Origin: Christensenella sp. UBA6094 | GTDB taxonomy: Bacteria > Bacillota > Clostridia > Christensenellales > UBA6094 | NCBI GenBank assembly: GCA_002435915.1 | Contig: DIWY01000002.1 | Coordinates: forward strand, 86,006 to 150,005 | Reading direction: 5' to 3' | Length of the DNA: 64,000 nt | Part shown: positions 3,759 to 46,071 of the stretch, one piece after another | How the letters are laid out: each line of letters begins with the position of its first letter | Position numbering within the stretch: position 1 is the first letter of the stretch | Notes under the pieces: model-generated | Told to the model about the DNA's origin: nothing | Databases searched by the model: none | Seen by the model: only the letters and a program-made list of their open reading frames with translations | Program-made: the position numbers and the translations under genes

Positions 3759-3779
3759 GGAAATCTCCTTTATTAACAT

Positions 3780-6774: not shown

Positions 6775-7158
6775 ATGGCATTAAACGGTCTTAAAAAAAA
6801 TGGACAGTTCGTATATGCATACAAAAAAGGTAAAGCAAAATCTACCAAGAGTATGACATTGATTTTTGTACGGGCTAGGACATATAATACAAAGGTAGGG
6901 TTTTCTGTATCCAAAAAGATAGGAAACGCCGTTGTTAGGAACAAAGTGAAGAGGCGATTGAAAGATAGCTTTGGCAGATATATGCCATTAGTTAAAAATG
7001 GTTATTACGTCGTTTTTGCCACCAGAAAACCTATAGCGGAAGCCACTTTTGCGCAGATACATAGTGATGTAGGATATCTGCTTAGCAAAGCAGGACTACT
7101 TAACACTGCTACCACTACACCTGTTGTAAAAGAAACTGCACAAACTAGCGAAAAATAA
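6775..7158 (+). CDS. rnpA: Ribonuclease P protein component
   Basis: ORF 6685..7158 trimmed to MALNGLKKNGQF. The basic RNase P protein motif (VVRNKVKRRLKD) is present and the gene follows rpmH. Confidence 0.85.
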   Translation: MALNGLKKNGQFVYAYKKGKAKSTKSMTLIFVRARTYNTKVGFSVSKKIGNAVVRNKVKRRLKDSFGRYMPLVKNGYYVVFATRKPIAEATFAQIHSDVGYLLSKAGLLNTATTTPVVKETAQTSEK

Positions 7159-7511
7159 ACGCGGTCAAAAGCTAGAAAACTCGAGATAGCATGCCGCGAC
7201 AGACTCACCGGCCAGCGGCCGGGAAAGTTTAATGACTAGCGATATAATGCACGCGGCTTTAAAAGTTAATTTACTATAATTGTATAACGCGTCGTCGATC
7301 CGGTCAGCGACCGGGGAAGATAAAAAATACACTTAACAATGGACGCGGACTAAAAAGTTAGTGAACTATAAAAACTATTCCGCGACAACCGGTCCAGCGG
7401 GACGCAGGGAAATTTAAAAACCCACTTCATAATGCACGCGGCTTTAAAAGTTAATTTACTATAATTGTATAACGCGTCGTCGGTCCAGCTGGAAGCTGGG
7501 GAAGAATAAAA
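7159..7511 (+). repeat. Four tandem units of about 92 bp filling the rnpA-yidD spacer
   Basis: Units start at 7159, 7251, 7343 and 7436, each beginning ACGCGG. Units 2 and 4 share a near-identical stretch of about 54 nt (ATAATGCACGCGGCTTTAAAAGTTAATTTACTATAATTGTATAACGCGTCGTCG). Each unit has an ACGCG(G)...(C)CGCG(T/A) stem around an AT-rich loop, then a GC hairpin (e.g. CCGGCC-AGC-GGCCGG), then GGGAA(A/G). Confidence 0.85.
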
Positions 7512-7721
7512 ATGAAACATGTAATCATATATATACTAAAAAAATATAAGAAATATATATCTCCTTTACTCGGGGACCACTGCAGATTCTATCCCACATG
7601 CAGCGAGTATATGGTAGAGGCGATAAATAAATACGGTACGCTAAAAGGAGTGTATTTGGGACTACGGCGCTTATTGAAGTGCCACCCGTTTCACAAAGGC
7701 GGGTATGACCCACTCCAGTAA
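7512..7721 (+). CDS. yidD: Membrane protein insertion efficiency factor YidD
   Basis: 69 aa with the conserved [10 protein letters not shown]...[10 protein letters not shown] motif. Confidence 0.9.
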
Positions 7722-7747
7722 ATTAGCACGAAAGAGAGAGGGAATAG

Positions 7748-8707
7748 ATGGATTTTCTTGGATCGATATTTTACGAATTGCTGTACGGCATATATTCAAT
7801 CGTTAATAACTATGTAGTAGCAATAATTATTTTCACTTTAATAATTAAGTTCCTTACTATACCTATTGACTACAAGCAAAGAAAACAAAGCGAAATGCTC
7901 AGAAAACTACAACCTCAAATGGAAAGCCTTAAAAAACGTTATGGGCATGACATGAAAAAATATCAGGTTAAGCTATCAGAACTGCAAAAAGGTGCAGGGT
8001 ACTCACCTCTTGGCGGTTGTTTGCCTTTGCTAATAATACTACCTATTTTCGCTGGACTTTTCGGTGCAGTTAATATTATGCAAAAAGAACAGACAGCACA
8101 GATGCTTGTTAGCATAAGCAATGGTGTAATAAACCCAGAACAGCTTATGACATCTTTCGGCTGGATACGTAATATATGGGCGCCAGATTCTATGCTATTA
8201 ACATCGTTGCCTTCTATGACTGATATTAATAACGTAGCTGCATTTGTAGGACCAAGCCATCTAACACCTGAAGTACTAGCTAGTGCTAAGGCAATAGCTT
8301 CTTCACTAAGCGGAAACGAAGCAGCATTGCAACAGTTCCTATATAATGTAGGCGCAGAGCCAACATGGGGTATAACAGGAACACTCACTTTAGCAAAAGC
8401 TAGCAACGGATTGTTTGTATTGCCAGTTATCGGTGGTTTAGCAGCGTTCTTCTCACAAAAGATTTCAATGAAGAACATGCCATCTTCAACAGAACAAACA
8501 GGACAAACAATGAAAATGATGCTATACATGATGCCACTTATAACAGTGTTTATCGGCGCTACATCCTCATCAGCCTTCTCGTTCTATTGGATAACATCAA
8601 TGGTATTTAGCTTCTTCGAACAGCTAGTATTCCAATCTTATTTTAAAAAGAAACGTGAGAAAGAAGAGGAGCTAGAGGTTGCCACGATTAGCGGAGGTAA
8701 AGAATAA
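7748..8707 (+). CDS. yidC: YidC/Oxa1-family membrane protein insertase (SpoIIIJ-like)
   Basis: 319 aa, multi-TM, with a basic C-terminal tail, in conserved rnpA-yidD-yidC-jag synteny. Confidence 0.85.
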   Translation: MDFLGSIFYELLYGIYSIVNNYVVAIIIFTLIIKFLTIPIDYKQRKQSEMLRKLQPQMESLKKRYGHDMKKYQVKLSELQKGAGYSPLGGCLPLLIILPIFAGLFGAVNIMQKEQTAQMLVSISNGVINPEQLMTSFGWIRNIWAPDSMLLTSLPSMTDINNVAAFVGPSHLTPEVLASAKAIASSLSGNEAALQQFLYNVGAEPTWGITGTLTLAKASNGLFVLPVIGGLAAFFSQKISMKNMPSSTEQTGQTMKMMLYMMPLITVFIGATSSSAFSFYWITSMVFSFFEQLVFQSYFKKKREKEEELEVATISGGKE

Positions 8708-9537
8708 TGGAAGAGCTAGGAATGATCGAGATCTCAGGGAAGTCTGTTGACGAAGCCGTTTTTCTCGGCATCACACAGATGGGCCTTGCTCTTGACGAGG
8801 TTTCTATAGAGATTGTTGAAGAGACATCCGGCTTTCTTGGAATGGGTAAAAAAGTTAAGGTGCGACTTATTAAAAAGAGCGCAGAGACTTTAGAAAAAGA
8901 ATACAGCAAGGTCGATGATAAACCTTCAAAACCAGCAGTAGCAGAAAGGCACTCTCAAAGTTATGACAGAGTGCATTCAGATAGAAAAGATTTTAGGTCT
9001 GACAAAAAAGAATACTTTGAAAAAAAGTATGCCGAAGAAGAGCCATTCGTTTCTAACATGGTTGAAACTCAAGGCGCTAAAGAAGACACGATAAAGGAAT
9101 TTTTAACAGAGCTAATTAGACTTATGGGCATTACAGCTACCGTTCATTGCCAGAAGAACGACGAAGGCATTATGAAAGTAGAGCTTAGAGGAGATTCTAA
9201 GCAAGTAGGAGCACTTATTGGCTACAGAGGCGATGTGCTTGATTCACTTCAGCATATTACATCACTTGCAGTAAACAAAGACGAAGAGACCTACAACCGT
9301 ATCGTTCTAGACGTCGAAGGTTACAGGCAAAAACGTGAACAGACGCTAGTCGTTTTAGCTAAGCGGATGGCACAAAAAGCACAGAAAAAAGGTAAGGTTG
9401 TTATGGAGCCCATGAACCCTTACGAAAGACGTATATTGCACGCTACACTACAAGATAACGAAAGCGTCACAACGTATAGCGAGGGTGAAGATCCCATGCG
9501 CCGAGTCATAATAGTTTCAAAAGACTACGTTAAATAA
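8707..9537 (+). CDS. jag: Jag/KhpB RNA-binding protein (Jag_N, KH, R3H domains)
   Basis: 276 aa. The start overlaps the yidC stop (TAATG). A C-terminal R3H-type motif (PMNPYERRILHATL) is present. Confidence 0.8.
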   Translation: MEELGMIEISGKSVDEAVFLGITQMGLALDEVSIEIVEETSGFLGMGKKVKVRLIKKSAETLEKEYSKVDDKPSKPAVAERHSQSYDRVHSDRKDFRSDKKEYFEKKYAEEEPFVSNMVETQGAKEDTIKEFLTELIRLMGITATVHCQKNDEGIMKVELRGDSKQVGALIGYRGDVLDSLQHITSLAVNKDEETYNRIVLDVEGYRQKREQTLVVLAKRMAQKAQKKGKVVMEPMNPYERRILHATLQDNESVTTYSEGEDPMRRVIIVSKDYVK

Positions 9538-9540
9538 AAA

Positions 9541-9563
9541 GGCGCCCAATAGGGCGCTTTTTC
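9541..9563 (+). terminator. Rho-independent terminator after jag
   Basis: GCGCCC-AATA-GGGCGC followed by TTTTT. Confidence 0.75.
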
Positions 9564-9618
9564 TTTGATAAAGTATTTATGGGGAGCTGAGCTCTTTTCT
9601 TGGGGCGCCGCGCTATTT

Positions 9619-9672
9619 TATGGGGCGCTGCCCCAAACCCTGTTACTTTTCTTAAAGAAAAGTAACAAAAGA
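9619..9672 (-). repeat. Family-1 multi-hairpin repeat, partial (modules D and C)
   Basis: TATGGGGCGCTGCCCCAAACC followed by a variant palindrome TTACTTTTCTT-A-AAGAAAAGTAA, whose arms changed in a compensatory way. Confidence 0.7.
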
Positions 9673-9951
9673 TAGATAAGAGAATGGCATAGAAAACTTT
9701 AGTTCTGTGAAATGGCTTTTTTGAAGAGAGAAAGTATACAAAATAATAGCATGGACGTAAAAGTGCCTGCAGGTGAACCCTGTCCAGCTCCTGCTGGACC
9801 CGTCCAACGTCCCGTTGGATCGTCTATCGCGTCAGAGAGACGGCTTGGAAAAACTTTAGTTCTGCGAATGGCTTTTTTGCGGAAATGTGTAAAAATAAAC
9901 AAAACTAGTCTTGAGAACAAAATAAATACTAACATTTATAATTTTCTAAAT

Positions 9952-10007
9952 ATCTTTTGCTTCTTTTCTTTAAGAAAAGAAGTGGAGGTATGGAGGCAAA
10001 GCCTCCA
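9952..10007 (+). repeat. Family-1 multi-hairpin repeat, partial (modules C and D)
   Basis: ATCTTTTG-CTTCTTTTCTTTAAGAAAAGAAG-TGGAGGTA-TGGAGGCAAAGCCTCCA, directly upstream of mnmE. Confidence 0.8.
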
Positions 10008-10045
10008 TAAAAACAACTTTTTCATACGCTTGGGAGGGATGAACC

Positions 10046-11386
10046 ATGTCCACAATATATGCACTTTCAACACCACCGGGCGAAGGTGGTATATCGATAG
10101 TAAGGCTGTCGGGAGAAGAAAGCCTATCTATTATAAAAAAACATATAGACAGAGAACTTAGCTTTGAGCCAAGGAAGATGCACTACTGCTTTTTTGTGGA
10201 CGATGGCGAGAAGATAGACGAAGTAATGGTCGTTTATTTGAAAGGCCCAAAAACGTATACAAGAGAAGACGTAGTCGAAATACATTGCCATGGATCCATG
10301 CTGTCCGCTTCGAGGATAATGACTGCGCTTAATAAAAGCGGTGCAGTGCCTGCTGAAGCTGGCGAGTTCACTAAACGTGCTTTTCTTGCAGGTAGGCTAG
10401 ACCTATCGCAAGCGGAAGCGATCATGGACTACATCGGCGCTATGACGGTGGCAACGCAAAAGGCTGCACTGGCAGGCATGGAAGGCACTATAAGCAAGGG
10501 CATTGAAGATGCGACAGAGCTGATGATCGATACACTAGCGCATCTGGAAGTGGCAATCGATTATCCTGAGGAGGACATTGAACCTCAGGCGTATATGGAA
10601 GTGCTCCAAACAATCGAAAATGTCGAGGGCATTATAAACCCTCTTATTGATACAAAAGACTCAGGAAAGATTCAGCGTGAAGGTTACAGAGTTGCTATTA
10701 TCGGCGTGCCGAACGTCGGCAAATCATCACTGCTTAATGCGCTACTCGGTCAGCAAAGAGCAATCGTAACGGATATAGCAGGCACAACACGCGATTATAT
10801 AAGAGAATACTACGCAATTGGCGGAATTCCGTTTGTTATAGTAGATACGGCAGGCATACACAATCCTGGTGATATTATCGAGGCAGAAGGCATTGATAGA
10901 TCTATTGCCGAGTCCGAGAACGCCGACTGTATACTGTTCATGGTTGATGCGTCAAAACCGCTTGGCGATGCGGACAAGCATATTAACGAACTGGTTTCGG
11001 GCAAGAATGTTCTGCTTGTAGTAAACAAGATTGATGTTAGTCAGACCAGTGATGAGATAAAAGCGCTGGGGCATGAGTACGCCGAGATAAGTGCTAAAAA
11101 TGGCATTGGAATCGAAGAACTTAAAAAAGCGTTATACGATAAAGCTATGCAGACTTTTAGGGGCGACAGCTCACAGGCGACTATTAACGCGCGTCAGGCG
11201 GACATGCTGCTCGGTTGCAAAAGAGCACTCGAGTCTGCAAAAGAGCAAGTTGAGCTGTGCAGTGATGCCGAGTGCATTTCAATCGACTTAAATGAAGCGC
11301 TGTTCTATCTTCTAAGCGTTGTAGGCAAAGCTCTCGACGAAAAAATTATCGATAGAATATTCGAAAAATTCTGCTTGGGGAAGTAA
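10046..11386 (+). CDS. mnmE: tRNA modification GTPase MnmE (TrmE/ThdF)
   Basis: 446 aa with G-domain motifs GVPNVGKSSL, DTAG and NKID, and the C-terminal CLGK motif. Confidence 0.95.
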   Translation: MSTIYALSTPPGEGGISIVRLSGEESLSIIKKHIDRELSFEPRKMHYCFFVDDGEKIDEVMVVYLKGPKTYTREDVVEIHCHGSMLSASRIMTALNKSGAVPAEAGEFTKRAFLAGRLDLSQAEAIMDYIGAMTVATQKAALAGMEGTISKGIEDATELMIDTLAHLEVAIDYPEEDIEPQAYMEVLQTIENVEGIINPLIDTKDSGKIQREGYRVAIIGVPNVGKSSLLNALLGQQRAIVTDIAGTTRDYIREYYAIGGIPFVIVDTAGIHNPGDIIEAEGIDRSIAESENADCILFMVDASKPLGDADKHINELVSGKNVLLVVNKIDVSQTSDEIKALGHEYAEISAKNGIGIEELKKALYDKAMQTFRGDSSQATINARQADMLLGCKRALESAKEQVELCSDAECISIDLNEALFYLLSVVGKALDEKIIDRIFEKFCLGK

Positions 11387-11399
11387 CAAAGAACATTTT

Positions 11400-11538
11400 G
11401 GAGACGCTGTCTCCAAGCCTCTGCCAAAGGGATGTATCCCTTTGGAATCCCAACGTAGAGTTATAATATTAATATATTCACGTTTCTTTTGCTTCTTTTC
11501 TTAAAGAAAAGAAGTGGGGGTATGGGGATGAAATCCCC
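11400..11538 (+). repeat. Family-1 multi-hairpin repeat, full copy (first of a tandem pair)
   Basis: Modules in order: A GGAGAC-GCT-GTCTCC; B CCAAAGGGATGTATCCCTTTGG; AT-rich spacer; C CTTCTTTTCTTAAAGAAAAGAAG; D GGGGAT-GAA-ATCCCC. Confidence 0.85.
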
Positions 11539-11546
11539 AAAAAAGA

Positions 11547-11667
11547 CCTCTGCCAAAGAGAAGCATCACTTTGGAAACCCAGCGCAGAGTTATAATATTA
11601 ATATTTTCGCGATTCTTTTGCTTCTTTTCTTAAAGAAAAGAAGTAGGGGCAAGGGGATGAAATCCCC
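11547..11667 (+). repeat. Family-1 multi-hairpin repeat, second tandem copy with degenerate module B
   Basis: CCTCTGCCAAAGAGAAGCATCACTTTGG, the same AT-rich spacer (GAGTTATAATATTAATAT), module C, then GGGGAT-GAA-ATCCCC. Confidence 0.8.
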
Positions 11668-11725
11668 ATAAACCCCCCCACCATTAGAAAGATTATAATT
11701 AGATTTAATATAAAGAGGGATACAT

Positions 11726-13624
11726 ATGCAGACATACAAATCTTATGACGTAGATGCCGTGGTAGTAGGCGCTGGTCATGCAGGGTGTGAGGCGGCACTA
11801 GCGCTTGCTAGGCTGGGACTAAAAACTATTATTATGACAGTTAATCTAGACGCGATTGCGCTTATGGCGTGCAACCCTGCTATAGGTGGCACGGCAAAAG
11901 GGCATCTCGTTCGTGAAATAGATGCGCTGGGTGGACAGATGGGTATCAACGCTGATGCGGCAATGCTCCAGATGAAAATGCTGAACCTGTCAAAAGGTCC
12001 AGCGGTTTATTCGCTGCGCGCGCAGGAAGACAAAAAGCTCTATACGCAGACAATGAAAGAAACGCTAGAGAACCAAGAAAATTTGATAGTACTGCAAGCA
12101 GAAGCTGCTAAGATTATTGTAGAGGACGGCAAAGTCTGTGGCGTTGAAACGGCTACAGGCGCTGTGATAAGCGCTAAAGCTGTCGTTCTTGCTACAGGCG
12201 TTTATCTAAAATCGCGTATAATTATTGGCGAATATATAAAGCATTCAGGTCCATCAGGGCTAGCTTCGGCAGATCTTCTAACGGAATCGCTAATAGAAAA
12301 TGGCCTAAAAGTATTAAGGTTCAAGACAGGTACGCCTGCAAGAGTGGATAGACGTTCTATCGATTTTAGCAAGATGACGATACAGGAAGGCGACGATCCA
12401 ATCGTTCCGTTCTCGTTCATGACTGACAACCTGGATTTCAAGCAGACACCGTGCTATCTTGCGTATACCAACGAAAGAACACATGCGATAATAAGAGCTA
12501 ACCTGCACAGATCACCGCTTTATGATGGCACGATACAGGGCAAAGGACCAAGATACTGTCCGTCTTTTGAAGGCAAAGTAGTTACGTTTGCGGACAAAGA
12601 AAGGCATCAACTTTTCGTTGAGCCGGAAGCTATGCACACTAACGAAGTGTATATGCAGGGCATGTCATCCTCATTGCCTGAAGAAGTACAGCTAGCATTT
12701 TTAAGAACGATAGAAGGTCTTGAAAACTGCGTTGTCATGAGGACAGGCTATGCGATTGAGTATGATCTTATAGATCCAAAACAGCTAAAACCGTCACTCG
12801 AAGTGAAGTTTATAGATTCGCTCTTTGCAGCGGGGCAGATAAACGGTTCATCCGGCTACGAAGAAGCAGCAGCGCAAGGCATTATTGCAGGCATAAACGC
12901 CGCTATGAAAATAAAAGGGCAAGATCCACTTGTGCTTTCAAGAGATGAAGCGTATATCGGCGTACTTATAGACGACCTTGTAACTAAGGATCTGGAAGAG
13001 CCGTATAGGATGATGACCTCAAGAGCTGAATACAGATTACTGCTAAGGCAGGACAATGCAGATCTAAGGCTTACAGAATACGGCAGACGTATAGGTCTTG
13101 TTAGCGATGAGAGATATGCTAGATACATTGCTAAAAAAGAAAAGACGGAAAGCGAACTAGCCAGATACTCAAAAACAGTACTTTCGCCAAAAGGACCTGT
13201 TGCTGATATTCTCACTTCTTTAGGCCAGAGCATACCGCAAACTGGTATTACTCTTGAAGAGCTGTTAAGAAGACAGGGAGTCACGTATGATGATGTAATA
13301 AAGCTTGACCCACAAAGTGCAGACAACGATCCGCAGGTTCGTGAGCAGATAGCAGTTTCTATTAAATATAAAGGATATATAGATAAGCAAATTGCTCAGG
13401 CTAAAAGACAAAAGTCTATGGAGAATATGAAACTACCAGAAGAAATTGATTATAAAGATATTGGCGGACTAAGACTTGAGGCGGCAGAAAAGCTTAATAT
13501 TGTTAAACCGCTAAACCTTGGACAAGCGTCTCGTATTTTAGGAGTTTCGCCAAGCGATATATCAGTACTTATGGTATATCTTGAAAAACAAAAAAGAGAA
13601 AAATCTTTTAGCAGAGCACAATAA
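11726..13624 (+). CDS. mnmG: tRNA uridine 5-carboxymethylaminomethyl modification enzyme MnmG (GidA)
   Basis: 632 aa with an N-terminal FAD-binding [10 protein letters not shown] motif. Classic partner of mnmE. Confidence 0.95.
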
Positions 13625-15720: not shown

Positions 15721-15771
15721 TATAGAAAATTTGATTTAATATAGTATTATTATAGTAGGCTATTAAAATTT

Positions 15772-15922
15772 TATGGAGGCTCTGCCTCCAAACCTCCGCT
15801 TCTTTTCTTAAAGAAAAGAAGGAAAAGATGTGTTGAGAAATTATTAAATCAATTATATTCTATTGGAGGGGATTCCCAAGGGATACATCCCTTTGGTGAT
15901 GGTTTGGAGGCAAAGCCTCCAA
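15772..15922 (-). repeat. Family-1 multi-hairpin repeat, full copy in inverted orientation
   Basis: Read on the plus strand: GGAGGC-TCT-GCCTCC, module C, AT-rich spacer, CAAGGGATACATCCCTTTGG, GGAGGC-AAA-GCCTCC. Confidence 0.85.
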
Positions 15923-16664: not shown

Positions 16665-16835
16665 TTGCAAAACTAATTATAATACGGGATTTTGCATTTT
16701 CAAAAAAACTTTTTACAAATAAGCACGAATAAAGTCTAATATTCTGAACGAGGAAGGGAAATGGCATTAAATAAAGAATTAAGAGTTTATATTAAAGTTT
16801 ACAAAAAGAAAACTCGTTGTTTGGAGTGTAATGCA

Positions 16836-17708
16836 ATGTTTAACAAGAAACCTGACATATCTGATAAGTTTAACTCGGATAGAGAGATAATGGATTTGCC
16901 AATTGAAAATGTTATACCCAACCCGTATCAGCCCAGACGTGTTTTTGTTGAAGAAAAGATAGACGAGCTTGCAAAGTCTATTAACCAATATGGGCTCATT
17001 CAACCTATTGTTGTGCGCGAGCGTAAAGATGGATTGTTCGAGCTTGTGGCTGGTGAACGCAGGTTAAGAGCTAGCAAAAAGCTAGAGCATACTACCATAA
17101 AAGCGATAGTTATGTCTGCTGGCGAGGGTGATAGTGCTGTTATTGCCTTAATAGAAAACATACAGAGAGAAAACCTGCACTTTATGGAAGAGGCAGAAGC
17201 GTACGAAGCTCTTTTGAAGGATCACGGAATAACACAAGAGGAGCTGGCAGCAAGACTTGGTAAAAACCAGTCTACTATAGCCAACAAGCTACGTATACTG
17301 CGTTTGCCCGATTATGTAAAAGAGGCGGTTATCTCAAACAGGCTGACAGAGAGGCATGCAAGAGCACTGCTTAGGCTACATGACGAGCAGAGCCAGCTTA
17401 AGCTTGTTGATACGATAAGAAAAAAGAATTTGTCCGTTAAAGTGACAGAAGAGCTAGTTGAAAGACAGCTACAAACTTTATACGAAACGAAACCGAAAGC
17501 TCAGACGGGCAAGCTTATAAGAGTTCTAAGAGATTATCGAATATTTTTGAACTCTATAAAAACAGTCATAATGCAGATGAAAGAGGCCGATATCGATGCT
17601 CAGTTCAAGCAGTATGACGAAGAAGGATGCGTGCGTATAGAAATTATTATAAATAAGCCAGGTTCATCCCACCTGACAGCACAAGCGGAAGAGGTCAATT
17701 CCCTGTAA
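16836..17708 (+). CDS. noc: ParB/Noc-family nucleoid-associated protein (Noc-like)
   Basis: ORF 16761..17708; I prefer the ATG at 16836 (GGAG upstream), which gives about 290 aa. It has the ParB N-domain GERRLRA motif and an HTH (QSTIANKLRILRLP). The C-terminal layout resembles Bacillus Noc and the gene follows rsmG as noc does. Confidence 0.7.
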   Translation: MFNKKPDISDKFNSDREIMDLPIENVIPNPYQPRRVFVEEKIDELAKSINQYGLIQPIVVRERKDGLFELVAGERRLRASKKLEHTTIKAIVMSAGEGDSAVIALIENIQRENLHFMEEAEAYEALLKDHGITQEELAARLGKNQSTIANKLRILRLPDYVKEAVISNRLTERHARALLRLHDEQSQLKLVDTIRKKNLSVKVTEELVERQLQTLYETKPKAQTGKLIRVLRDYRIFLNSIKTVIMQMKEADIDAQFKQYDEEGCVRIEIIINKPGSSHLTAQAEEVNSL

Positions 17709-17768: not shown

Positions 17769-18008
17769 TAGGGACGCTGTTATTTGTGAGGGCTTTGCCC
17801 TCACACTCCCACTTCTTTTCTTAAAGAAAAGAAGCAAAAGATATGTAGAGATTATATTTATGCAAACATCGGTTCAACGGTCTGCTTGGTAGACTATATC
17901 CAAGCACTTTTACATAAAAGCAAAGATTACAAAAATATTAATAATTTTTAGATGGGATTCCAAAGGGATGCATCCCTTTGGCAGAGGTATGGAGACGGAG
18001 TCTCCATA
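17769..18008 (-). repeat. Family-1 multi-hairpin repeat, long-spacer full copy in inverted orientation
   Basis: TAGGGACGCTGTTATTT-GTGAGGGCTTTGCCCTCAC, module C, a spacer of about 120 nt, CCAAAGGGATGCATCCCTTTGG, then GGAGAC-GGA-GTCTCC. Confidence 0.8.
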
Positions 18009-18032
18009 GGCTTGTTTACGCGCTAAGGTTTT

Positions 18033-18306
18033 TAGGGACGCTGTCGTATTTGTGAGGGTTTCACCCTCACACTCCCACTTCTTTTCTTAAAGAAAAGAAG
18101 GAAAAGATATGTATAGTGTTTATTGTTGCTTGTTGAAAAATTCTCTAGCTTAAACAGGACTAAAGGCAAGTATACAGAAAGGACGAAACGGCTATTGATA
18201 TTATTTCTATTCATCGATCCAACAGGATGTTGGTCAATCCAACGGAACGTTGGCCGGTCCAGCAGGATGCTGGCCTTTTGCAGAGGTATGGAGACGGAGT
18301 CTCCAT
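18033..18306 (-). repeat. Family-1 multi-hairpin repeat, variant with alternative hairpin modules
   Basis: It has the same leader (TAGGGACGCTGTCGTATTT) as the preceding copy, then GTGAGGGTTTCACCCTCAC and module C. Module B is replaced by CCAACAGGATGTTGG (18219-18233), CCAACGGAACGTTGG (18239-18253) and a GGTCCAGC..GCTGGCC hairpin. It ends with GGAGAC-GGA-GTCTCC. Confidence 0.75.
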
Positions 18307-18508
18307 AGGCTTGCTTGTGACGGCTAAAGTGTTTTGGGGACGGAGCTCCCATATAATATAACAAACAAAAAAAGCAGCATGTTAGCCGCTCCTATCAAAT
18401 AACCATAAATATTAGGTGCTCAGAGTCTTTGTGAAAAGCATAAATAACAAACGCAGTAAGGAAAAAACCTCTGTGGATGCATTTTTATATTAAATTCTGT
18501 TAGTGCCC

Positions 18509-18928: not shown

Positions 18929-19003
18929 TGGGATGCTGTTATTTGTGAGGGGTTTACCCTCACACTCACACTTCTTTTCTTAAAGAATAGAAGGAAAAGA
19001 TAT
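18929..19003 (-). repeat. Family-1 multi-hairpin repeat, partial and decayed (modules D and C)
   Basis: GGGATGCTGTTATTT-GTGAGGGGTTTACCCTCAC followed by CTTCTTTTCTTAAAGAATAGAAG, which has one arm mismatch. Confidence 0.7.
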
Positions 19004-19100: not shown

Positions 19101-19598
19101 ATGAAAAATAAAGAAATAATTAAATTGATTATGGAAAATCAGAAAAAAGCAGACATGATAGTCCATGAAAATTATCATTCACTGACGCAAAAATATGACT
19201 TGAGTCTTGATCAGTTTCATCTATTATTAGAGCTCGATGAACTAATGCTAGATTTGGAAAACGAAACTCAAGCGCCTACGATAGGAGCTATTGCCAAAAA
19301 TGTAAATGTATCGCAAAATACAGTATCAGAGAGGATAACGAGGCTTGAAAAAAAAGAGCTTGTTCAACGTATTGAGGATAATAAGGATAGGCGAGTAAGC
19401 CACGTTGTTTTGACTAAAAAAGGCAAAGAGTTATTGAAGTCGATCAACAAAGAAGCTGAGACAGATTTTGTAAAAACTGCTCTTTCAAGAATGACAGTAG
19501 ATGAATTAAAAGATTTTCTTAGGTGCTATGAAAAATTAATTTATAATATGTCGTTTATTAATAAAACCGATAAGGGAGATGTTGAATGTGGAAAATGA
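19101..19598 (+). CDS. MarR-family transcriptional regulator
   Basis: 165 aa with a winged HTH (VSQNTVSERITRLEKKELVQRIEDNKDRRV). Confidence 0.85.
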   Translation: MKNKEIIKLIMENQKKADMIVHENYHSLTQKYDLSLDQFHLLLELDELMLDLENETQAPTIGAIAKNVNVSQNTVSERITRLEKKELVQRIEDNKDRRVSHVVLTKKGKELLKSINKEAETDFVKTALSRMTVDELKDFLRCYEKLIYNMSFINKTDKGDVECGK

Positions 19599-20280: not shown

Positions 20281-20336
20281 ATCTTTTGTTTCTTTTCTTT
20301 AAGAAAAGAAACAGAGGTATGGAGACGGAGTCTCCA
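20281..20336 (+). repeat. Family-1 multi-hairpin repeat, partial (modules C and D)
   Basis: ATCTTTTG-TTTCTTTTCTTTAAGAAAAGAAA-CAGAGGTA-TGGAGACGGAGTCTCCA. The palindrome arms changed C>T and G>A together. It lies just downstream of the rsmA stop. Confidence 0.8.
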
Positions 20337-20344
20337 TGTAATCT

Positions 20345-25574: not shown

Positions 25575-26040
25575 TTTGTGAAGGTTTTTGTGGCTGGAGT
25601 TAGGGGTTGGCTCCGCAAGCGTCGCTGAAGTGTCTCTGTAAGTGAATTTAGAGCGTCCCTGTGAGAGCCGTTGGAGGCAGTGCATAAGCGTTGTGCGTTT
25701 ACTTGATGCTGCGTATCTAAGTTCGCTCTCTTCGTACTTTTTTAGAAAAAGTACCAAAAATCGCCGACCACGCTACATCCGAAAAATGCAATTCCAAACG
25801 CTCGCGCTGGTTTTATAAATCGCCTTTAAGTTTGCTACAGCTCGGCTTATAAGTTTGCAAAAAGCAAAGCTTGTTGTTTTCTTCCATGCTACAGTTTTTA
25901 ACAGGAGACTTAAAGGCTCTATAAAACATTTTATCGCTCGCGTAGGCAGGTCGCATTTTTCTTCTTCCGCTTGAGGTCGGCTTCTTTTTTGGGTAGAGCT
26001 TTGGAGTGGAATTTGAGGAGCAGGAAACAAGGCTTTAAGG
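25575..26040 (+). repeat. Family-2 composite repeat, copy A (short arrays plus a core of about 310 bp at 25682-25992)
   Basis: The core aligns by eye along its length with 30881-31192 and 45255-45566. Short G/T-rich CTTTG-type units flank it on both sides. Confidence 0.85.
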
Positions 26041-26044
26041 GTAT

Positions 26045-30633: not shown

Positions 30634-30658
30634 TTGTGGATAAGATGGGATTTTTAGA

Positions 30659-31545
30659 GCGACTCTGTAAGCGACTCTGTAGTCGTCTCTGGGAGCGTCT
30701 TTGAAGTGCTTTTGCAAGTGCCTTTGGGAGAGTCTCTGGGAGCGTCTTTGCCGGTCGGCTCTGTAGTCGGCTCTGTAAGCGACTCTGTAAGCGACTCTGT
30801 AAGCGACTCTGCAAGTGCCTTTGGGAGAGTTTCTGAGAGCGTCTTTGCAAACGACTTTGTGAGTGGCTTCGGAGGCTAGCGCATAAGCGTTGCGCATTTA
30901 TTTTTTCTTGCGTATCTAAGTTCGCTTTCACTGTACTTTTTTAGAAAAAGTACCAAAAATCGCCGACTGTGCTCCATCCGAAAAATGCAATTCCACACGC
31001 TCGCGCAGGTTTTATAAATCGCCTTTAAGTTTGCTACAGAGCTATTTATTAGTTTGCAAAAAATAGAGCTTATGTTTTCTTCTCATGCTACAGTTTTTAA
31101 TAGGTGACTTAAAGGCTCTATAAAACATTCTGCACGCTCGCGTAGGCAGGTTGCATTTTTCTCCTTCCGCTTAAGGTCGGCTTCTTTTTTGTTGGGGCTG
31201 GTCTTTGAGGGCGATGGATAGGTTAGGGTTGGGCGATGAATAGGTTAGGGTTGGGCTTTGAGGGTGGCTTTTGGGGTGATGGATAGATTAGGGCAGGGCT
31301 TTGGGGTGGCTTCGGGGTGATGAATAGATTAGAGCTGGTCGTTGAAGGTGGCTACGGGGTGAAGAATAGGTTAGGGTTGGGCGTTGCGGGTGGATTTGGG
31401 GGAGAATGTTGGGTGGGCTTTATGGAAGCCTTTGCAAATTCTTTGTAGCGTTTTTGTGAGCTTCGTTGTGAGCGCCTTTGAAGGTGCTGTTGGAGTGGCG
31501 TTGCGAGCGAAGTTGGGATGGTAAAGCTAAGGGATGATGCAAACT
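30659..31545 (+). repeat. Family-2 composite repeat, copy B (left array 30659-30880, core 30881-31192, right array 31193-31545)
   Basis: The left array holds 18 units in strict 12-nt phase, including GCGACTCTGTAA three times in a row. The core has three nested stems. The right array holds units of about 11 nt of the GGGCTTTGAGGG / GGTTAGGGTTGG type. Confidence 0.9.
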
Positions 31546-36372: not shown

Positions 36373-36939
36373 ATGAAAAATGTTTCTGTAAGGTTTGCAG
36401 TAAAAAGCGATAGGGAGTGTCTTTTGCAGATATATGCAGTGTATGTTAAAAAAGGCATAGCAAGAGACCGCGTTGTGCCAAGTGCTTTCGAATTCGAAGA
36501 TAGAATCCAAAGAACAGCAAATGGATTTCCGTTTGTTGTGTGTCAGATTGATGGGCAGATCGTTGGTTATGCTTATGTATCCGTGCATGAGGATAATGCT
36601 GACAATATTTGGACGACAATCTATATTTCGGATTTATATCACCGCAATAAAATAGGCAAGGCACTTTACACTTGCATCTTAGATTTTATTAAGCTTCAAG
36701 GGTATGAGAGAATTCATGCTATTGCAATGGCTTCAAATGAAGGCAGTATAAGATTTCATGAGTCTTTTGGATTTAAGCAAGTGGGAGAGTACCCAAATGC
36801 AATTATCATGGAAAAGAAGTTTGAGGATTGCACAGATGCTCCAAATAAAACAATTAGCATACAAGAAATTGATAGCGAAACCAGTGCAAAGTTATTTGCA
36901 AATGCACAGAAGATTATCGAAGATACTTTTAGAGTCTAG
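36373..36939 (+). CDS. GNAT N-acetyltransferase (phosphinothricin/MnaT-like)
   Basis: 188 aa with a YHRNKIGKALY acetyl-CoA-binding region. It is a paralogue of the next gene. Confidence 0.8.
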   Translation: MKNVSVRFAVKSDRECLLQIYAVYVKKGIARDRVVPSAFEFEDRIQRTANGFPFVVCQIDGQIVGYAYVSVHEDNADNIWTTIYISDLYHRNKIGKALYTCILDFIKLQGYERIHAIAMASNEGSIRFHESFGFKQVGEYPNAIIMEKKFEDCTDAPNKTISIQEIDSETSAKLFANAQKIIEDTFRV

Positions 36940-37008
36940 ATATTAGTGGCTCAGCATATATTAGTATATTAAGTAATTAATATTATCAAAACTTGAGGAG
37001 GATGTCTT

Positions 37009-37617
37009 ATGAAAAAAGTTTCTGTCAGATTTGTGCAGAACAACGATGCAAAAGGCCTAATTGAGATTTATGCACCATATGTAACCGAAACACCCATAAC
37101 ATGCGAATGCGAAGTGCCAAGTGTGCAAGAATTCCAAGACAGGATCCAAAAAATTTCTAAGACATTCCCATATGTCGTATGCGAAATTGACGGAGAGCTG
37201 GTTGGGTACTCGTATGCATCTTTGCACAAAGAAAGAGCAGCGTATCGGTGGGACAGCGATGCAACAGTCTACGTTTCGAGCAATTATCATCGCAATAAAA
37301 TAGGCACAGCACTGTATAACTGCATGCTAGAACTAAATAAGCTACAGGGATTCTACAACATATATGCAGTAGTAACTACGGCAAACGAAGGAAGTATAAA
37401 ATTCCACGAAGCGTTTGGATTTGTGCCCATGGGCACGTACACAAACACAGCTTTTAAATTAGGTAAATGGCACAATATAACCGTAATGGAAAAGAAGCTA
37501 AAAGAGTATGATCTTGAACCAAAAGAAACGCTTAGCATAAAAGATATCGACAGCAAAATCATAGAAAAGCTATTTACAGAAGCGGAAGAGATTGTTGCTG
37601 AAACTTTTGTGGATTGA
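37009..37617 (+). CDS. GNAT N-acetyltransferase (phosphinothricin/MnaT-like), tandem paralogue
   Basis: 202 aa, colinear with 36373..36939 (VRF..IYA.YV.., YHRNKIGTALY, NEGSIKFHEAFGF). Confidence 0.8.
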   Translation: MKKVSVRFVQNNDAKGLIEIYAPYVTETPITCECEVPSVQEFQDRIQKISKTFPYVVCEIDGELVGYSYASLHKERAAYRWDSDATVYVSSNYHRNKIGTALYNCMLELNKLQGFYNIYAVVTTANEGSIKFHEAFGFVPMGTYTNTAFKLGKWHNITVMEKKLKEYDLEPKETLSIKDIDSKIIEKLFTEAEEIVAETFVD

Positions 37618-37626
37618 GGAGAAGAC

Positions 37627-38154
37627 ATGGCAGCAGCAATACGCTTGGCTAAAAAGAGCGAACTAAATAAGGTCGTTGCGCTCTACGATACGCTTAATGA
37701 TTATCTACAGAGCTCAATAAATTATCCACGCTGGAAAAAAGGACAATACCCGAGCGAAATTACTGCGACTGAGGGTTTTGAGGCTAACGGTCTTTATATC
37801 ATGGAAGTAAATGGCGAAATAGCTGGAACCATTATTCTGATTTCCGACCAACCGAAGCAATATGAAAAGCTTAGTTGGGGCAAAAGAAGCGAAGCAGAAA
37901 AAACGTTAGTAATTCATGCGCTGGCTGTGCACCCAAAATTCTTAAAAAGAGGAGTAGCATCACAGCTACTGGATTTTGCACAGCAGCTTGCAGTAAGCGA
38001 AGGAATGGAAACGATAAGGCTGGACGTTTTTGAAGAAAATTATCCTGCACAAAATCTTTATACAAAAAAGGGATATAAGTGTGTTGGGACAGTAGATCTT
38101 GAACTTAACATACCAGATCTTGTTATGTTTAAATGCTTCGAGAAAATACTTTAG
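37627..38154 (+). CDS. GNAT N-acetyltransferase
   Basis: 175 aa with LAVHPKFLKRGVASQLL (motif A). Confidence 0.8.
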   Translation: MAAAIRLAKKSELNKVVALYDTLNDYLQSSINYPRWKKGQYPSEITATEGFEANGLYIMEVNGEIAGTIILISDQPKQYEKLSWGKRSEAEKTLVIHALAVHPKFLKRGVASQLLDFAQQLAVSEGMETIRLDVFEENYPAQNLYTKKGYKCVGTVDLELNIPDLVMFKCFEKIL

Positions 38155-38173
38155 AAGAAGAGAGGAAACGCAA

Positions 38174-38605
38174 ATGAACATTAGAACAATGAGCATCGAT
38201 GATTATAAAGGAGCGTACCAAATATGGACATCCACAGAGGGAGTGGGACTGCGCAGTTTAGATGATTCGCATAATGGCATAAAAAAGTTTATTGACAGAA
38301 ACCCTAATACGAACTTTGTCGCGGTTGATGGTGATAAAATAGTTGGAGTTATACTGAGCGGGCATGATGGGCGAAGGGCTTACATTTACCACACATGCGT
38401 GGATACAGACTATCGCGGGCAGGGCATAGGTAAAATGCTAGTTGACGCTTCTCTTGATGCGCTAAAAGCTGAAGGAATAAACAAAGCTGCGCTAGTAGTT
38501 TTTACAGATAATCAGATAGGCAATCCGTTTTGGAGTGCTATCGGATGGGAAAGACGGCTTGACCTTAATTATTATAATAAAAGCCTTAATAGAAAGAATG
38601 TGTAG
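38174..38605 (+). CDS. GNAT N-acetyltransferase
   Basis: ORF 38099..38605 trimmed to MNIRTMSIDDY. It contains VDTDYRGQGIGKMLV (motif A). Confidence 0.8.
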   Translation: MNIRTMSIDDYKGAYQIWTSTEGVGLRSLDDSHNGIKKFIDRNPNTNFVAVDGDKIVGVILSGHDGRRAYIYHTCVDTDYRGQGIGKMLVDASLDALKAEGINKAALVVFTDNQIGNPFWSAIGWERRLDLNYYNKSLNRKNV

Positions 38606-38637
38606 TAAAGTTTCAGTTGAGTAGTAAGGAGATCATC

Positions 38638-38994
38638 ATGAAATACAAATGGATGGACGAATATTTTCTAGCGAAAAAAAGTGTCCAGAAAGATTTTAAA
38701 GTAGAATGGAATGCTACAAGATACTTTATTGGTGGCAAAATGTTTGCAATGCAAGGTGGCGACAAATATAATAAACCTATAATAACGCTTAAATGCGAGC
38801 CGATGTTTGGCAGGATGCTCAGAGAAACGTACAAAGATATTATTCCTGGGTATTATATGAACAAAGAGCATTGGAACTCAGTATATCTTGAAGGCGATGT
38901 GCCGGATGATATACTAAAGCAGATGATAGATATGTCGTATTCGCTTGTGCTTGGTTCTCTTAGCAAAAAAGCGCAAGCTGAGATAAACGGATAA
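38638..38994 (+). CDS. MmcQ/YjbR-family protein
   Basis: Trimmed to MKYKWMDEYF with AAGGAG upstream. The sequence KCEP...PGYYMNKEHWNSV is typical of the YjbR family. Confidence 0.7.
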   Translation: MKYKWMDEYFLAKKSVQKDFKVEWNATRYFIGGKMFAMQGGDKYNKPIITLKCEPMFGRMLRETYKDIIPGYYMNKEHWNSVYLEGDVPDDILKQMIDMSYSLVLGSLSKKAQAEING

Positions 38995-39021
38995 AAATAA
39001 ACACAAGCAGGAGGTAGATGA

Positions 39022-39426
39022 ATGGGTATTAAGTACAAAACCACTAAGAAATTTGCTCCAGAAGATTTGCAAGAGCTGTTTTTATCAGTAGAATGGTCGT
39101 CAGGGCACTACCCAGACAAACTAGTTATCGCTATGAAAAACTCCGGCTCGGTTTTCTCGGCATGGGAAGGCGATAAACTTATTGGGCTTGTTAATGTGCT
39201 GGATGATGGCGTTATGACTGCATATGTCCATTACCTGCTTATTAATCCAAACTATCATGGTCAAGGCATAGGTAAAAAGCTTGTGAGCTTAGTGAGCGAT
39301 AAATACAAAGACTATTTGCGAATTGTGCTAATTGCCTATGATAAAGAAATCGGATTCTACGAGAACTGCGGATTTGAAAAAGGCGAAGATAAAACACCTA
39401 TGTTTATAACCTCTCTTTGGACATAA
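39022..39426 (+). CDS. GNAT N-acetyltransferase
   Basis: 134 aa with INPNYHGQGIGKKLV (motif A). Confidence 0.8.
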   Translation: MGIKYKTTKKFAPEDLQELFLSVEWSSGHYPDKLVIAMKNSGSVFSAWEGDKLIGLVNVLDDGVMTAYVHYLLINPNYHGQGIGKKLVSLVSDKYKDYLRIVLIAYDKEIGFYENCGFEKGEDKTPMFITSLWT

Positions 39427-42955: not shown

Positions 42956-42975
42956 TCTTTTTTACGGAGACTTTT

Positions 42976-43143
42976 ATGGAGGCTATACTCTTTTGGAGAC
43001 TTTGCCTCCAAACCACCACCAAAGGGATGCATCCCTTTGGAATCCCATCCAAAAGAATATTCTAAATATTAAATTAACTCTATACATATCTTTTCCTTCT
43101 TTTCTTTAAGAAAAGAAGTGGGAGTATGAGGGCGACGCCCTCA
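42976..43143 (+). repeat. Family-1 multi-hairpin repeat, full copy
   Basis: GGAGAC-TTT-GCCTCC (imperfect), CCAAAGGGATGCATCCCTTTGG, AT-rich spacer, module C, then TGAGGGC-GAC-GCCCTCA. An extra half-arm CGACGCCCTCA lies at 43153-43163. Confidence 0.85.
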
Positions 43144-45062: not shown

Positions 45063-46040
45063 AGCTTTTGGAGCGTCTTTGGAGCGCTTTTGCGAGTGTC
45101 TTTGCAAGAATCTCTGGAGAGCCTCTGGAGCGTCAGGTGTCTTTGCGAGCGCCTCTGGAGAGCCTCTGGAGAGCCTCTGTTGGTGTTTTGTTGGCGTTTA
45201 TGTTAGTGTCTTGTGGGCGCCTTTGGAGATACAATGTAAGCATCTTTGGAGACTAGCTCATAAATTTTCAGCGTATATTAATTTATTCGTATCTAAGTTC
45301 CTGTTTCGTTGTACTTTTTTAGAAAAAGTACCAAAAATCGCCGACTGCGCTCCATTCAAAAATGCAATTTTATACGCTCACGTTGGTTTTATAAATCGCC
45401 TTTAAGTTTGCTCCAGCTATTCTTATTAGTGTGCATGAAGTACAGCTTTTTTCTTTCGTGCTCCAGTTTGAAATAGGAGACTTAAAGGCTCTATAAAACA
45501 TTTTTATCGCTCGCGTAGGCAGGTTGCATTTTTTTCATTTACGCTAAGGTCGGCGTTTGTTTTTGCTTGGGTGGGTCTTTGAGGGGTGGTTGGGGTGAGG
45601 CTTTGAGGGGGTGGTTTGGAGTGGGGTTTTGAGGGATGGTTTGGAGTGGGGCTTTGAGGGATGGGGTTTTGGACGAGCTTTTTTGAGTGGAGTTAAGTTA
45701 GAGATTTCTGATAAAGTTTTGTTGCTTTTTTAGGTCGGGCGTTGTAGGTGCCTTTGTAGTTGATTTTGAAGTGTTTTTGTTAGTGTCACTGTTAGCCTTT
45801 GTAGGTGTCTTTGTGATCGCCTTTGAGGGAGGGTTTGGGCGGGACTTTGAGGGAAGGTTTGGAGTGGGTCTTTGAGGGGTGTTTTGTGTCAGGCTTTGAG
45901 GGAAGGTTTGGAGTGGGTCTTTGAGGGGTGTTTTGTGTCAGGCTTTGAGGGAAGGTTGGGGGGCTTTGAGGGACGGTTTGGGGTGGGAATTAAGGGGCGG
46001 TTTGAAGTGGGGATCTGAGGGACGGTCTGGGTGGGGCGTA
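45063..46040 (+). repeat. Family-2 composite repeat, copy C (left array 45063-45254, core 45255-45566, right array 45567-46040)
   Basis: The left array has units of the GCCTCTGGAGA / GTCTTTGCGAG type. The core is the most diverged of the three but keeps all three nested stems. The right array includes a near-exact tandem duplication of about 49 bp at 45842-45940. Confidence 0.9.
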
Positions 46041-46071
46041 GATAGATTAATAAAACTCGTGCTATTTTGGG

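Follow-up and report, generated by a model that had tools for sequence, protein, structure and literature searches.

A gene-less, hairpin-forming interspersed repeat near the replication origin of an uncultured Clostridia lineage, most likely a mobile element

Repeats that hold no open reading frame (ORF) and fold into hairpins are already well known as a class. In REPINs, which are extragenic and ORF-less, two conserved inverted blocks of ~22 nt surround a poorly conserved spacer, and mobilisation is by RAYT, a Y1-type HUH transposase (PMC3116915, PMC3337134). The present study concerns a repeat family found in 64,000 nucleotides (hereafter the window) from Christensenella sp. UBA6094 (Bacillota, Clostridia; GenBank assembly GCA_002435915.1, contig DIWY01000002.1, positions 86,006 to 150,005), in which three co-oriented copies, A (25682-25992), B (30881-31192) and C (45255-45566), had been noticed from the letters of the DNA. 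That preliminary description had offered a structured non-coding RNA (ncRNA) gene family, an ORF-less mobile or recombination module, or a protein-binding array as explanations, and our analysis supports it in part. The copies belong to a family of interspersed repeats, not described before, that lacks genes, forms hairpins and is harboured by an uncultured Clostridia lineage; it is most likely a mobile element resembling repetitive extragenic palindromes (REPs), REPINs and miniature transposable elements with inverted repeats (MITEs).

REPIN-RAYT systems have been described mainly in Proteobacteria; the host studied here belongs to the Clostridia, in which, to our knowledge, systems like REPINs or bacterial interspersed mosaic elements (BIMEs) are essentially undescribed. 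BOX elements of Streptococcus pneumoniae (boxA-boxB(n)-boxC), Correia, ERIC, RUP and bcr1 are bacterial MITE-like repeats. For insertion sequences (IS) of the IS200/IS605 family, Ton-Hoang and co-workers are said to have described in 2010 a single-strand ‘peel and paste’ transposition that is coupled to replication, and class C group II introns, as Robart and co-workers reportedly found in 2007, insert after terminator hairpins and leave 5'-truncated copies. No described family matches the combination found here, i.e. a small hairpin, a 220-nt nested hairpin and a tail, accompanied by self-related 12-nt arrays and set in a mosaic of modules in Clostridia.

A multi-copy, non-coding and structurally constrained family

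Copies A, B and C align end to end on the plus strand with a mean column identity of 89%, in agreement with the preliminary description, which had also rated C as the more diverged copy: without the leader, A and B are 87% identical, and A/C and B/C 82-84%. Conserved 24-25-mers have exactly three matches in the window (0.00 expected from shuffles). This unit of ~300 nt is all that the three loci, each of them intergenic, have in common, and their flanks differ. The same loci are present in an independent JGI metagenome (3300002498, contig TOLCLC_10000540, 523 kb) and in Logan assemblies.

From 5' to 3' a copy comprises a leader of ~50 nt, a symmetric (9+3+9) AT-rich hairpin of 21 nt (GTACTTTTTTAGAAAAAGTAC), a CCAAAAA linker and an imperfect long hairpin of ~220 nt, after which an A/T-rich run and a tail of 15-17 nt (GGnnGGnCTTTGnGG) come in all copies of all genomes, so that the conserved unit reaches ~20 nt further 3' than the limits first drawn. 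The long hairpin is built of an outer helix (GCCGAC/GTCGGC; in B the stem AAAAATCGCCGAC at 30955 pairs with GTCGGC at 31176), a middle helix (AAAAATGC/GCATTTTT; in B at 30981/31151), a third helix (CGC..GCG) between the latter and the fourth (GTTTTATA/TATAAAAC), and an inner helix (GCCTTTAAGT/ACTTAAAGGC; in B at 31021/31107) that closes a variable apical loop of ~75 nt. All stems named in the preliminary description were recovered, at most one base away (the outer 3' arm had been placed at 31177). Its two pairs of direct repeats fared differently. TGCTACAG indeed occurs twice in both A and B, and corresponding twin repeats lie in the apical loops of all three copies (25833/25887, 31032/31086, 45409/45459) and of two copies from a related genome, D and E; they are identical within a copy and different between copies (TGCTACAG, TGCTCCAG, GCTGTT and ATGTGT, each twice), which could reflect selection or local tandem duplication of a ~25-nt unit. 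The exact string CACGCTCGCG, by comparison, is found twice in B only, and its repetition is explained by its being a quasi-palindrome within the CGC..GCG helix and thus part of the long hairpin.

Related genomes were located by walking homologues of the neighbouring proteins, and this search yielded members in four loci. L003 (Logan SRR22019787; peptidase 72% identical) carries the full copies D and E, L022 their orthologues D2 and E2, and L012 (SRR28968166; DNA 94-95% identical to L003) starts and ends inside two further copies, F and G. In L023, 20 kb of a 441-kb ENA contig with an 83% identical LeuD, five copies (H1-H5) and fragments lie on one strand. The family is thus found in genomes whose proteins are 72-83% identical to those of the window. 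No core was found at the sites examined in three loci of more distant relatives, L004 and L013 (peptidase 69-71% identical) and L026, which begins with the small hairpin joined to a different sequence.

Pairing was analysed in nine full copies (alignment A4) using RNAalifold and 500 shuffles. The small hairpin and the nested helices were recovered, and standard pairs fill 95.5% of 464 cells, as compared to 36-52% when partners are slid by 1-3 columns. Changes on both sides affect six pairs (14 cells), a level that none of the 500 shuffles reaches, and the covariation score of 0.102 (0.053 in shuffles) is likewise reached by none. Clear compensatory changes are seen, for example, in the CGC..GCG helix, where L023 copies have C-G replaced by U-A and A-U by U-A, and in the GTTTTATA helix, where U-A has become A-U in D, E and L023 copies. 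The outer stem of copy E, moreover, is of another sequence altogether (TGCTGCTT/AAGCGGCA in place of GCCGAC/GTCGGC); MAFFT misaligned it, and it was read by eye from the sequence and a single-sequence fold. The stems that had been seen to persist in C are conserved, with compensation, across the nine copies. At the same time 33 of 52 pairs never vary, so much of the structural support comes from both arms being conserved in sequence. Identity between genera is 70-80% in the arms and 33-47% in the apical loop; GGTTTTAWAAATCGCCTTTAAGT ... RCTTAAAGGCTCWWTAAAAC is invariant or nearly so in the nine copies, and the arms carry highly conserved inverted blocks of 22-24 nt around a freely evolving loop. 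Loop polarity is the same in all nine, with AGGAG beside the 3' inner arm, rather than occurring in both orientations as in an inverton. The core of B folds better than shuffles on both strands (z = -4.6 and -3.9). A strand assignment by folding energy and by G-U versus A-C counts was rejected, as there was no consistent preference, and RNA, either strand of single-stranded DNA or a cruciform could hence be the form in which the structure is read.

Copy D shares its leader type with A-C, and its arms are closer to those of A-C (~76-80%) than to those of E in the same genome (72%). By this sequence evidence at least two subfamilies predate the split of the two genera that have them in common, and the family is accordingly old. 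The copies are thus not strain-specific duplications devoid of structure-preserving variation, a case for which the preliminary description had allowed.

As had been noted, no ORF is conserved; the ORFs over the copies differ in strand and frame. Two minus-strand mini-ORFs (MFYRAFKSP... and MQPAYAS..., the latter with a good Shine-Dalgarno sequence in some copies) look conserved among A-C, but are broken in D and E, and a coding reading was rejected. ORF pieces from all six frames of five copies, joined into a chimeric protein query to pick up mis-called proteins over other copies, had no match at E<=10. At Rfam gathering thresholds the window's only match is a tetrahydrofolate (THF) riboswitch elsewhere, and the related loci L003, L012, L021 and L022 have none; permissive scans (E<=10) over B and C gave best matches of E 0.5-7, far below threshold and at chance level, and no covariance model, among them those for group II introns, retron-type RNAs, 6S, OLE, ROOL, GOLLD and HEARO, came near its gathering score. 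The proposed cmsearch check thus bears out that no known Rfam family is involved. Exact-pattern scans with conserved 20-21-mers over genome, metagenome and viral contig collections returned nothing, or chance 20-mer matches without wider homology, and blastn in distant mode against PLSDB plasmids and INPHARED phages had no match; neither approach disclosed a full-length parent IS with the same ends. Scans for sigma-70 promoters and intrinsic terminators found nothing consistent inside the cores. A literature search for a described equivalent gave nothing relevant beyond the REPIN/RAYT papers. Taken as a whole, the family is multi-copy, non-coding and structurally constrained.

Occupancy, insertion context and flanking arrays

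Between close relatives the occupancy of sites varies. L012 is without D and E and instead holds G, ~95 nt past the peptidase stop and in the orientation opposite to D; a 3.1-kb segment of L003, made up of a Flg_new/Big_2 surface-protein gene and copy E, is absent from the 94%-identical L012 (L003 6120-9215 versus L012 6212-6328). In L021, which is 86-88% identical to L003 and L012, both sites are empty, and no copy occupies the positions of A and B in L004 and L013. Two units stand in tandem at the leu site of L023, and at 17.3-17.6 kb of this locus lies a stack of 5'-truncated fragments that retain the 3' end. (In the L003 lineage the peptidase gene is inverted relative to the window.)

In most copies the 5' junction directly follows CATAAAAG or CATAAG. 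The recurrent context is CC(C)CATAAAAG, with which small GC-rich hairpin modules such as GGAGGCAGAGCCTCC end, and the unoccupied G site in L021 reads GGAGGCAGAGCCTCCATAAAG before the junction point and CTGCC after it. The leader between junction and small hairpin measures 11-13 nt (E, F, G, H1, H3, H4) or ~37-48 nt (A-D, H2). The G and E junctions showed no target duplication, and the right-hand junction of a clean insertion was not recovered.

The window contains the oriC region, with dnaN (2658-3779) and dnaA (4228-5571) on the minus strand followed by rpmH/rnpA, yidC, jag, mnmE and mnmG on the plus strand (whole span 2658-13624), and the sign of the GC skew switches at ~4-6 kb. From ~6 kb on the plus strand is thus the leading-strand sequence and hence the lagging-strand template, on which A, B and C, co-oriented, lie to the right of oriC at distances of ~20, 25 and 40 kb. 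Judged by GC skew, 10 of 12 copies (A, B, C, D, E and the five of L023) are on the same, G-rich replication strand, which is again the copy-carrying strand in L003, L012 and L023; the exceptions are G and a hairpin-only fragment at L026 1-37. Copies at the leu site keep the replication orientation though both flanking genes run the opposite way.

Arrays of degenerate 11-12-nt units (TYTGnnRGnnnC; G+T 62-79%, C 7-20%) lie beside the cores and nowhere else in the window. The ‘tens of units’ said to flank each core hold for B and C (14-33 per array), but not for A (~3-8). Nor is it supported that the arrays are an intrinsic, conserved part of the element: a single GGnCTTTGnGG tail, then spacer and hairpin modules, and no arrays come after the cores of L003 and L023, whereas in the window genome the tail unit is repeated 3-33 times downstream of the cores. 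The arrays are therefore best seen as the product of an amplification, specific to this genome, of a motif that is part of either the element or the target it prefers. Upstream units are related to the tail unit and resemble half of a GGAGGC..GCCTCC module, and the tail of B (GGCTGGTCTTTGAGG) is nearly the same as that of a 5'-truncated core fragment in L023 (GGCTGGTCTTTGTGG). At ~45732 a fragment that looks like the 3' end of a second core (AGGTCGGGCGTTG) interrupts the downstream arrays of C. In the window the tail motif occurs only beside cores or arrays. It is also present without a core (GGGCAGGGCTTTGTGG / GGGCGGGACTTTATAG) at ~75-90 (-) of L003 and ~19555-19570 (-) of L023, directly after a ‘ctttaagaaagcagc’ module and on the cores' strand, where it either marks a target without an insertion or is left over from a core that was lost.

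All six canonical G-quadruplex motifs of the window (G3+N1-7 x4, both strands searched) fall on the plus strand of the downstream arrays of B (31291-31402) and C (45569-46036), and the minus-strand reading of these arrays holds the most extreme C>G stretches of the window (0.45-0.55; 99th percentile 0.27). Neither property is conserved in the relatives; either could matter to the host. A giant hairpin of the arrays was rejected: the plus strand folds better than the minus strand (-295 versus -183 kcal/mol), but shuffled arrays reach the same energy (z = -0.3 and -2.2), and the folding is thus an effect of composition only. Complementarity between array units and loop repeats (CTGTAG/CTGTAA rich in B, CTGGAG rich in C) was found in two loci only and discarded as too weak.

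A second and more abundant family of small hairpins (gagggc...gccctc; gagggctttgccctc; aaagggatgcatcccttt; ggagac...gtctcc; ggagacggagtctcc; cttcttttcttaaagaaaagaag) occupies at least 10 intergenic loci of the window, one of them with a 129-nt tandem repeat (11418-11672). The arrays are not descendants of these REP-like modules: blastn-short finds the modules at these loci and not in the arrays, and apart from the tail motif the resemblance is loose. The second family is common to L003, L012 and L023, and in the relatives its modules directly flank the cores on both sides. By analogy, the whole may be described as a BIME-like mosaic in which extragenic palindromic modules are combined and the long hairpin is the largest, REPIN-like one.

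Explanations for the family

Variable occupancy between near-identical genomes, a recurrent insertion context, orientation bias and truncated copies are best accounted for by a mobile module, the second of the options originally offered. With a probability of about one half, we regard the loci as copies of a lineage-restricted, ORF-less mosaic extragenic repeat that is non-autonomous, depends on its structure and is mobilised in trans. An enzyme whose gene lies elsewhere would copy the element by recognising its folded single strand, most plausibly at the replication fork, on the lagging-strand template, and in the mode in which HUH/Y1 transposases act on IS200/IS605 ends and REP/REPINs, with insertion directly after a hairpin module ending in CATAAAAG. 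Such a single-strand mechanism is suggested by the hairpin-adjacent context, the lack of an obvious duplication, the lagging-template bias and the internal inverted blocks, all of which are known from HUH/Y1 products; as the enzyme was not found and the 3' end does not mirror the 5' hairpin, it is a tentative assignment, about which we are more doubtful than about mobility itself. The arrays would be secondary, the element's tail unit and, upstream, module-like units having been amplified locally by slippage or by stacked abortive or truncated self-targeted copies. Plausible candidates for side effects on the host are a two-way terminator formed by A-run, hairpin and T-run, and arrays prone to G-quadruplexes or, on the other strand, rich in C and poor in G.

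The likeness to REP, REPIN and BIME systems lies in the extragenic, ORF-less and multi-copy nature of the family, in hairpin-folding, conserved inverted blocks around a variable spacer (33-47% identical between genera), in long vertical persistence with local turnover and in the mosaic combination with other small hairpin modules. A REPIN doublet of 60-110 nt, however, is much exceeded by a hairpin of ~215-220 nt with four or five nested helices, which is, moreover, preceded by an extra AT-rich hairpin of 21 nt, and the 12-nt flanking arrays have no counterpart. REPIN-RAYT systems comprise tens to hundreds of extragenic copies per genome and a single-copy RAYT gene that is typically flanked by the repeats; here there are three copies in ~82 kb and five in 20 kb of L023, all extragenic, and no Y1_Tnp was among the Pfam calls from 9 kb before to 9 kb behind the window (these ~82 kb) or in the fetched loci.

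BOX and other MITE-like repeats are likewise modular, non-coding, intergenic and found in Firmicutes or other bacteria, with stable stem-loops and a variable number of tandem sub-units; they can terminate transcription or alter the expression of neighbours, as may, by analogy, the present element. The tandem unit is here only 12 nt long, though, lies outside the core on both sides and occurs in one genome only, and no sequence similarity was detectable in the collections searched. Unlike in MITEs derived from DDE insertion sequences, the inverted repeats are internal: the element starts with an unpaired leader and the small hairpin and ends in an A/T run and the tail, without terminal inverted repeats, and no target duplication was seen. 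Like IS200/IS605 ends and palindrome-associated transposable elements (PATEs), it has a conserved sub-terminal 5' hairpin, recurrent insertion, as far as the 5' junctions show, directly 3' of a short fixed sequence (CATAAAAG, also carried by the empty L021 site) without obvious duplication, and a lagging-template bias (10 of 12 copies, in one origin-proximal neighbourhood). It differs from them in that the small hairpin stands at the 5' side only instead of at both ends, in the absence of a TnpA or TnpB gene from the window and the fetched loci, and in the long internal hairpin. Class C group II introns share insertion a few bases past a DNA stem-loop, one orientation relative to replication and fragments that retain the 3' end; ~300 nt is, in contrast, too small for an intron, no intron signature was detected by the Rfam intron models, and there is no reverse transcriptase.

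Several points weigh against a mobile element. Neither the ~82 kb around the window nor any fetched locus showed a mobilising enzyme (no transposase, reverse transcriptase, integrase or recombinase is annotated in the former, as had been stated for the immediate surroundings of the copies), and no autonomous relative with the same ends came up in the exact-pattern scans or the plasmid and phage blastn. Among the loci compared, a complete filled/empty pair with both junctions was not recovered. The best-conserved parts are internal rather than terminal, and the small hairpin has no second copy at the 3' side, unlike in IS200/IS605 ends. The E site in the empty L021 already holds a tail-like motif, so that the tail may be a part of the target and not of the element. 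The orientation bias was seen in 12 copies, all of them from a single stretch of chromosome near oriC. Finally, D/D2 and E/E2 are positional orthologues that remain in place across ~12% genomic divergence (80-89% identity, with ~88% in adjacent coding DNA), which a resident functional element also fits.

It is conceivable, though rather improbable, that the repeat is the cis half of an undescribed Clostridia mobilisation system with an unlinked enzyme, in which copying is initiated at the 3' tail and self-targeting builds the arrays. The folded strand, lagging-template DNA or an RNA copy, would then insert in one orientation after a host hairpin module; abortive events starting from the tail would stack 12-nt units and leave 5'-truncated fragments, and the twin, covarying apical-loop repeats would be candidate recognition or guide sequences.

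Apart from mobility, the strongest competitor, still unlikely in our view, is a family of structured ncRNA genes, the plus strand giving rise to a ~290-nt RNA (5' stem-loop, long rod and U-rich end) that acts in trans or in cis, with paralogues differing in the apical loop and the twin repeats as recognition sequences. The compensatory changes, the conservation of unpaired blocks (CCAAAAA linker, bulges, AGGAG before the 3' inner arm), the orthologous D/D2 and E/E2 and the joint change of the twin repeats between copies would all suit such an RNA. The leader of A-C does have TTGnGC-N17-TATCTA, and TATAAT precedes a solitary small hairpin at 55507, but TATCTA is without the invariant T at its end, none of the cores was assigned a sigma-70-type promoter by the scans, and E, F, G, H1, H4 and H5 have another leader or none. 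Similarly, the U-run that follows the closing stem in A-C is not conserved in D, E and the L023 copies. Folding energies that favour neither strand, the many stem pairs that never vary, the variable occupancy of near-identical genomes and the tandem and truncated copies are further difficulties. We consider it less probable still that the loci are DNA-level chromosomal sites, where palindromes (as duplex, cruciform or lagging-template hairpin) and phased G-rich arrays bind a host protein or form G-quadruplexes or R-loops and so serve origin-proximal chromosome organisation, segregation, replication or recombination. The presence of oriC in the window, with three copies to its right co-oriented with replication, and the density of copies in the syntenic neighbourhood of the relatives speak for it, as do an array period of about one helical turn, the confinement of all six G-quadruplex motifs to the plus strand of the downstream arrays of B and C, and a small hairpin that resembles a dimer operator and also occurs alone. 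On the other hand, relatives keep the core without arrays, copies are gained and lost between close relatives and are known from origin-proximal sequence only, and the 15 kb to the left of oriC are without any. No candidate for the binding protein emerged: the site type of the nearby ParB-family gene is a different, unrelated one, and parS-like sites were not found.

A role as host transcriptional insulator is about as improbable as an explanation of the loci, and it does not exclude the other readings. The hairpin flanked by A-run and T-run would be a two-way intrinsic terminator, and judging from composition the minus-strand RNA of the arrays, C-rich, G-poor and phased by 12 nt, could be rut-like (Rho-loading) and stop head-on or antisense transcription. 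The copies are all intergenic and usually just past an ordinary terminator, A and C lie downstream of minus-strand operons (dnaD-dnaC; leuA-C-D), and the minus-strand C>G excess of the downstream arrays is in keeping with Rho loading; no minus-strand operon runs into B, though, the arrays are those of one genome, the T-run is not conserved, and the spread of the family is left unexplained by what may well be a side effect. Recent segmental duplication or assembly artefacts without function are very improbable. A and B are 87-91% identical and short-read Logan contigs break inside copies, but the loci recur in the independent JGI assembly as well as in Logan assemblies and share the 300-nt unit alone and not the flanks. 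Conserved blocks and compensatory changes in genomes with proteins only 72-83% identical, i.e. conservation across genera, exclude a simple origin of this kind.

If the reading as a mobile repeat is right, the family represents a REPIN/BIME-like mosaic system in an uncultured, spore-forming Clostridia lineage of methanogenic hydrocarbon-degrading and other anaerobic communities. It would make a case for structure-dependent ORF-less elements that persist vertically yet turn over locally and that choose hairpin-adjacent targets and one replication strand, and it would illustrate how a short terminal motif can seed G-quadruplex-prone minisatellites in a low-GC genome. In practical terms, the element breaks short-read assemblies, gives rise to spurious ORF calls in the arrays and marks rearrangement-prone sites near the origin.

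Feature coordinates and genomic neighbourhood

Table 1. Parts of the three copies and other hairpin modules in the window.
Feature	Position	Strand	Remarks
A, upstream array	25575-25681	+	short, degenerate, ~4-8 units; starts right after terminator of 51-aa gene
A, leader	25682-25733	+	GCATAAG, then (after junction) CGTTG...CGTATCTAAGTTC...; long-leader subtype common to B, C and L003 copy D
A, small AT-rich hairpin	25734-25754	+	GTACTTTTTTAGAAAAAGTAC
A, long imperfect hairpin	25763-25981	+	five helices and variable apical loop
A, tail	25991-26041	+	GGGTAGAGCTTTGGAG and ~3 more units
B, upstream array	30659-30880	+	17 units of 12 nt, TCTGTAAGCGAC type
B, leader	30881-30932	+	
B, small hairpin	30933-30953	+	
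B, long hairpin	30962-31181	+	followed by T-run, 31182-31192
B, tail and downstream array	31196-31545	+	GGCTGGTCTTTGAGG running into G/T-rich array; 2 of the 6 G-quadruplex motifs of the window
C, upstream array	45067-45254	+	14 units, TCTGGAGAGCC / TTTGGAGCGTC type
C, leader	45255-45310	+	
C, small hairpin	45311-45331	+	
C, long hairpin	45340-45554	+	
C, tail and downstream arrays	45567-46045	+	~33 units; 4 G-quadruplex motifs
Solitary small-hairpin module	55507-55527	+	GTACTTTTTTTAAAAAAGTAC, without long hairpin; leader-like TTCGTATAAT precedes
Second module family, loci	1-37, 9646-10013, 11399-11672, 15769-15922, 17770-18313, 18930-18993, 20290-20337, 42961-43143, 62675-62853, 63212-63343		

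Copy A is located between the terminators of a 51-aa gene and of a dnaD/dnaC-like operon, B between an M1 peptidase gene and a penicillin-binding protein (PBP) gene, and C between leuD and a gene for a membrane protein, which both run on the opposite strand. The neighbours of the copies (dnaC-like gene, PBP, leuD, membrane protein) include no reverse transcriptase, and the retron arrangement, in which this gene lies directly downstream of msr-msd, is thus not found. The ~82 kb that include the window hold no further core copy. Among named organisms, LeuD has its closest relatives in Acutalibacteraceae and [Clostridium] methylpentosum (68-71% identity), by which the lineage would be placed within the Clostridia, probably close to Oscillospirales.

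The single perfect DnaA box of the whole window (TGTGGATAA, 30635-30643) stands at the start of the upstream array of B; a lone box is at chance level, and a DnaA-box role was rejected. The ParB-family gene (ParB_N and HTH_ParB; 16761-17708, +) follows rsmG without an adjacent ParA, and no parS-consensus site was found anywhere in the window with up to two mismatches allowed. The THF riboswitch (689-787, -; 94 bits) lies upstream of an energy-coupling factor (ECF)-type S-component gene (51-608, -). A 93-nt tandem repeat (2.6 copies, 7246-7486) is found just downstream of rnpA, and its CGCG..GGTCCAGC motif also occurs in intergenic repeats of L004 and L026. At least six small GNAT acetyltransferase genes stand in tandem at 36373-39426 (+), an arrangement conserved in L003, L012 and L023.

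The solitary palindrome GTACTTTTTTTAAAAAAGTAC lies between convergent genes at the edge of a phage-like cluster, which extends from 55704 to the window's end at 64000 and on to ~4 kb past it (L017, to 16379), and which sits before dnaB-rplI-gdpP. No integrase was seen in the examined part of this cluster; its genes encode an XRE repressor, small and large terminase subunits, portal, major capsid and adaptor proteins and a peptidoglycan (PG)-binding protein.

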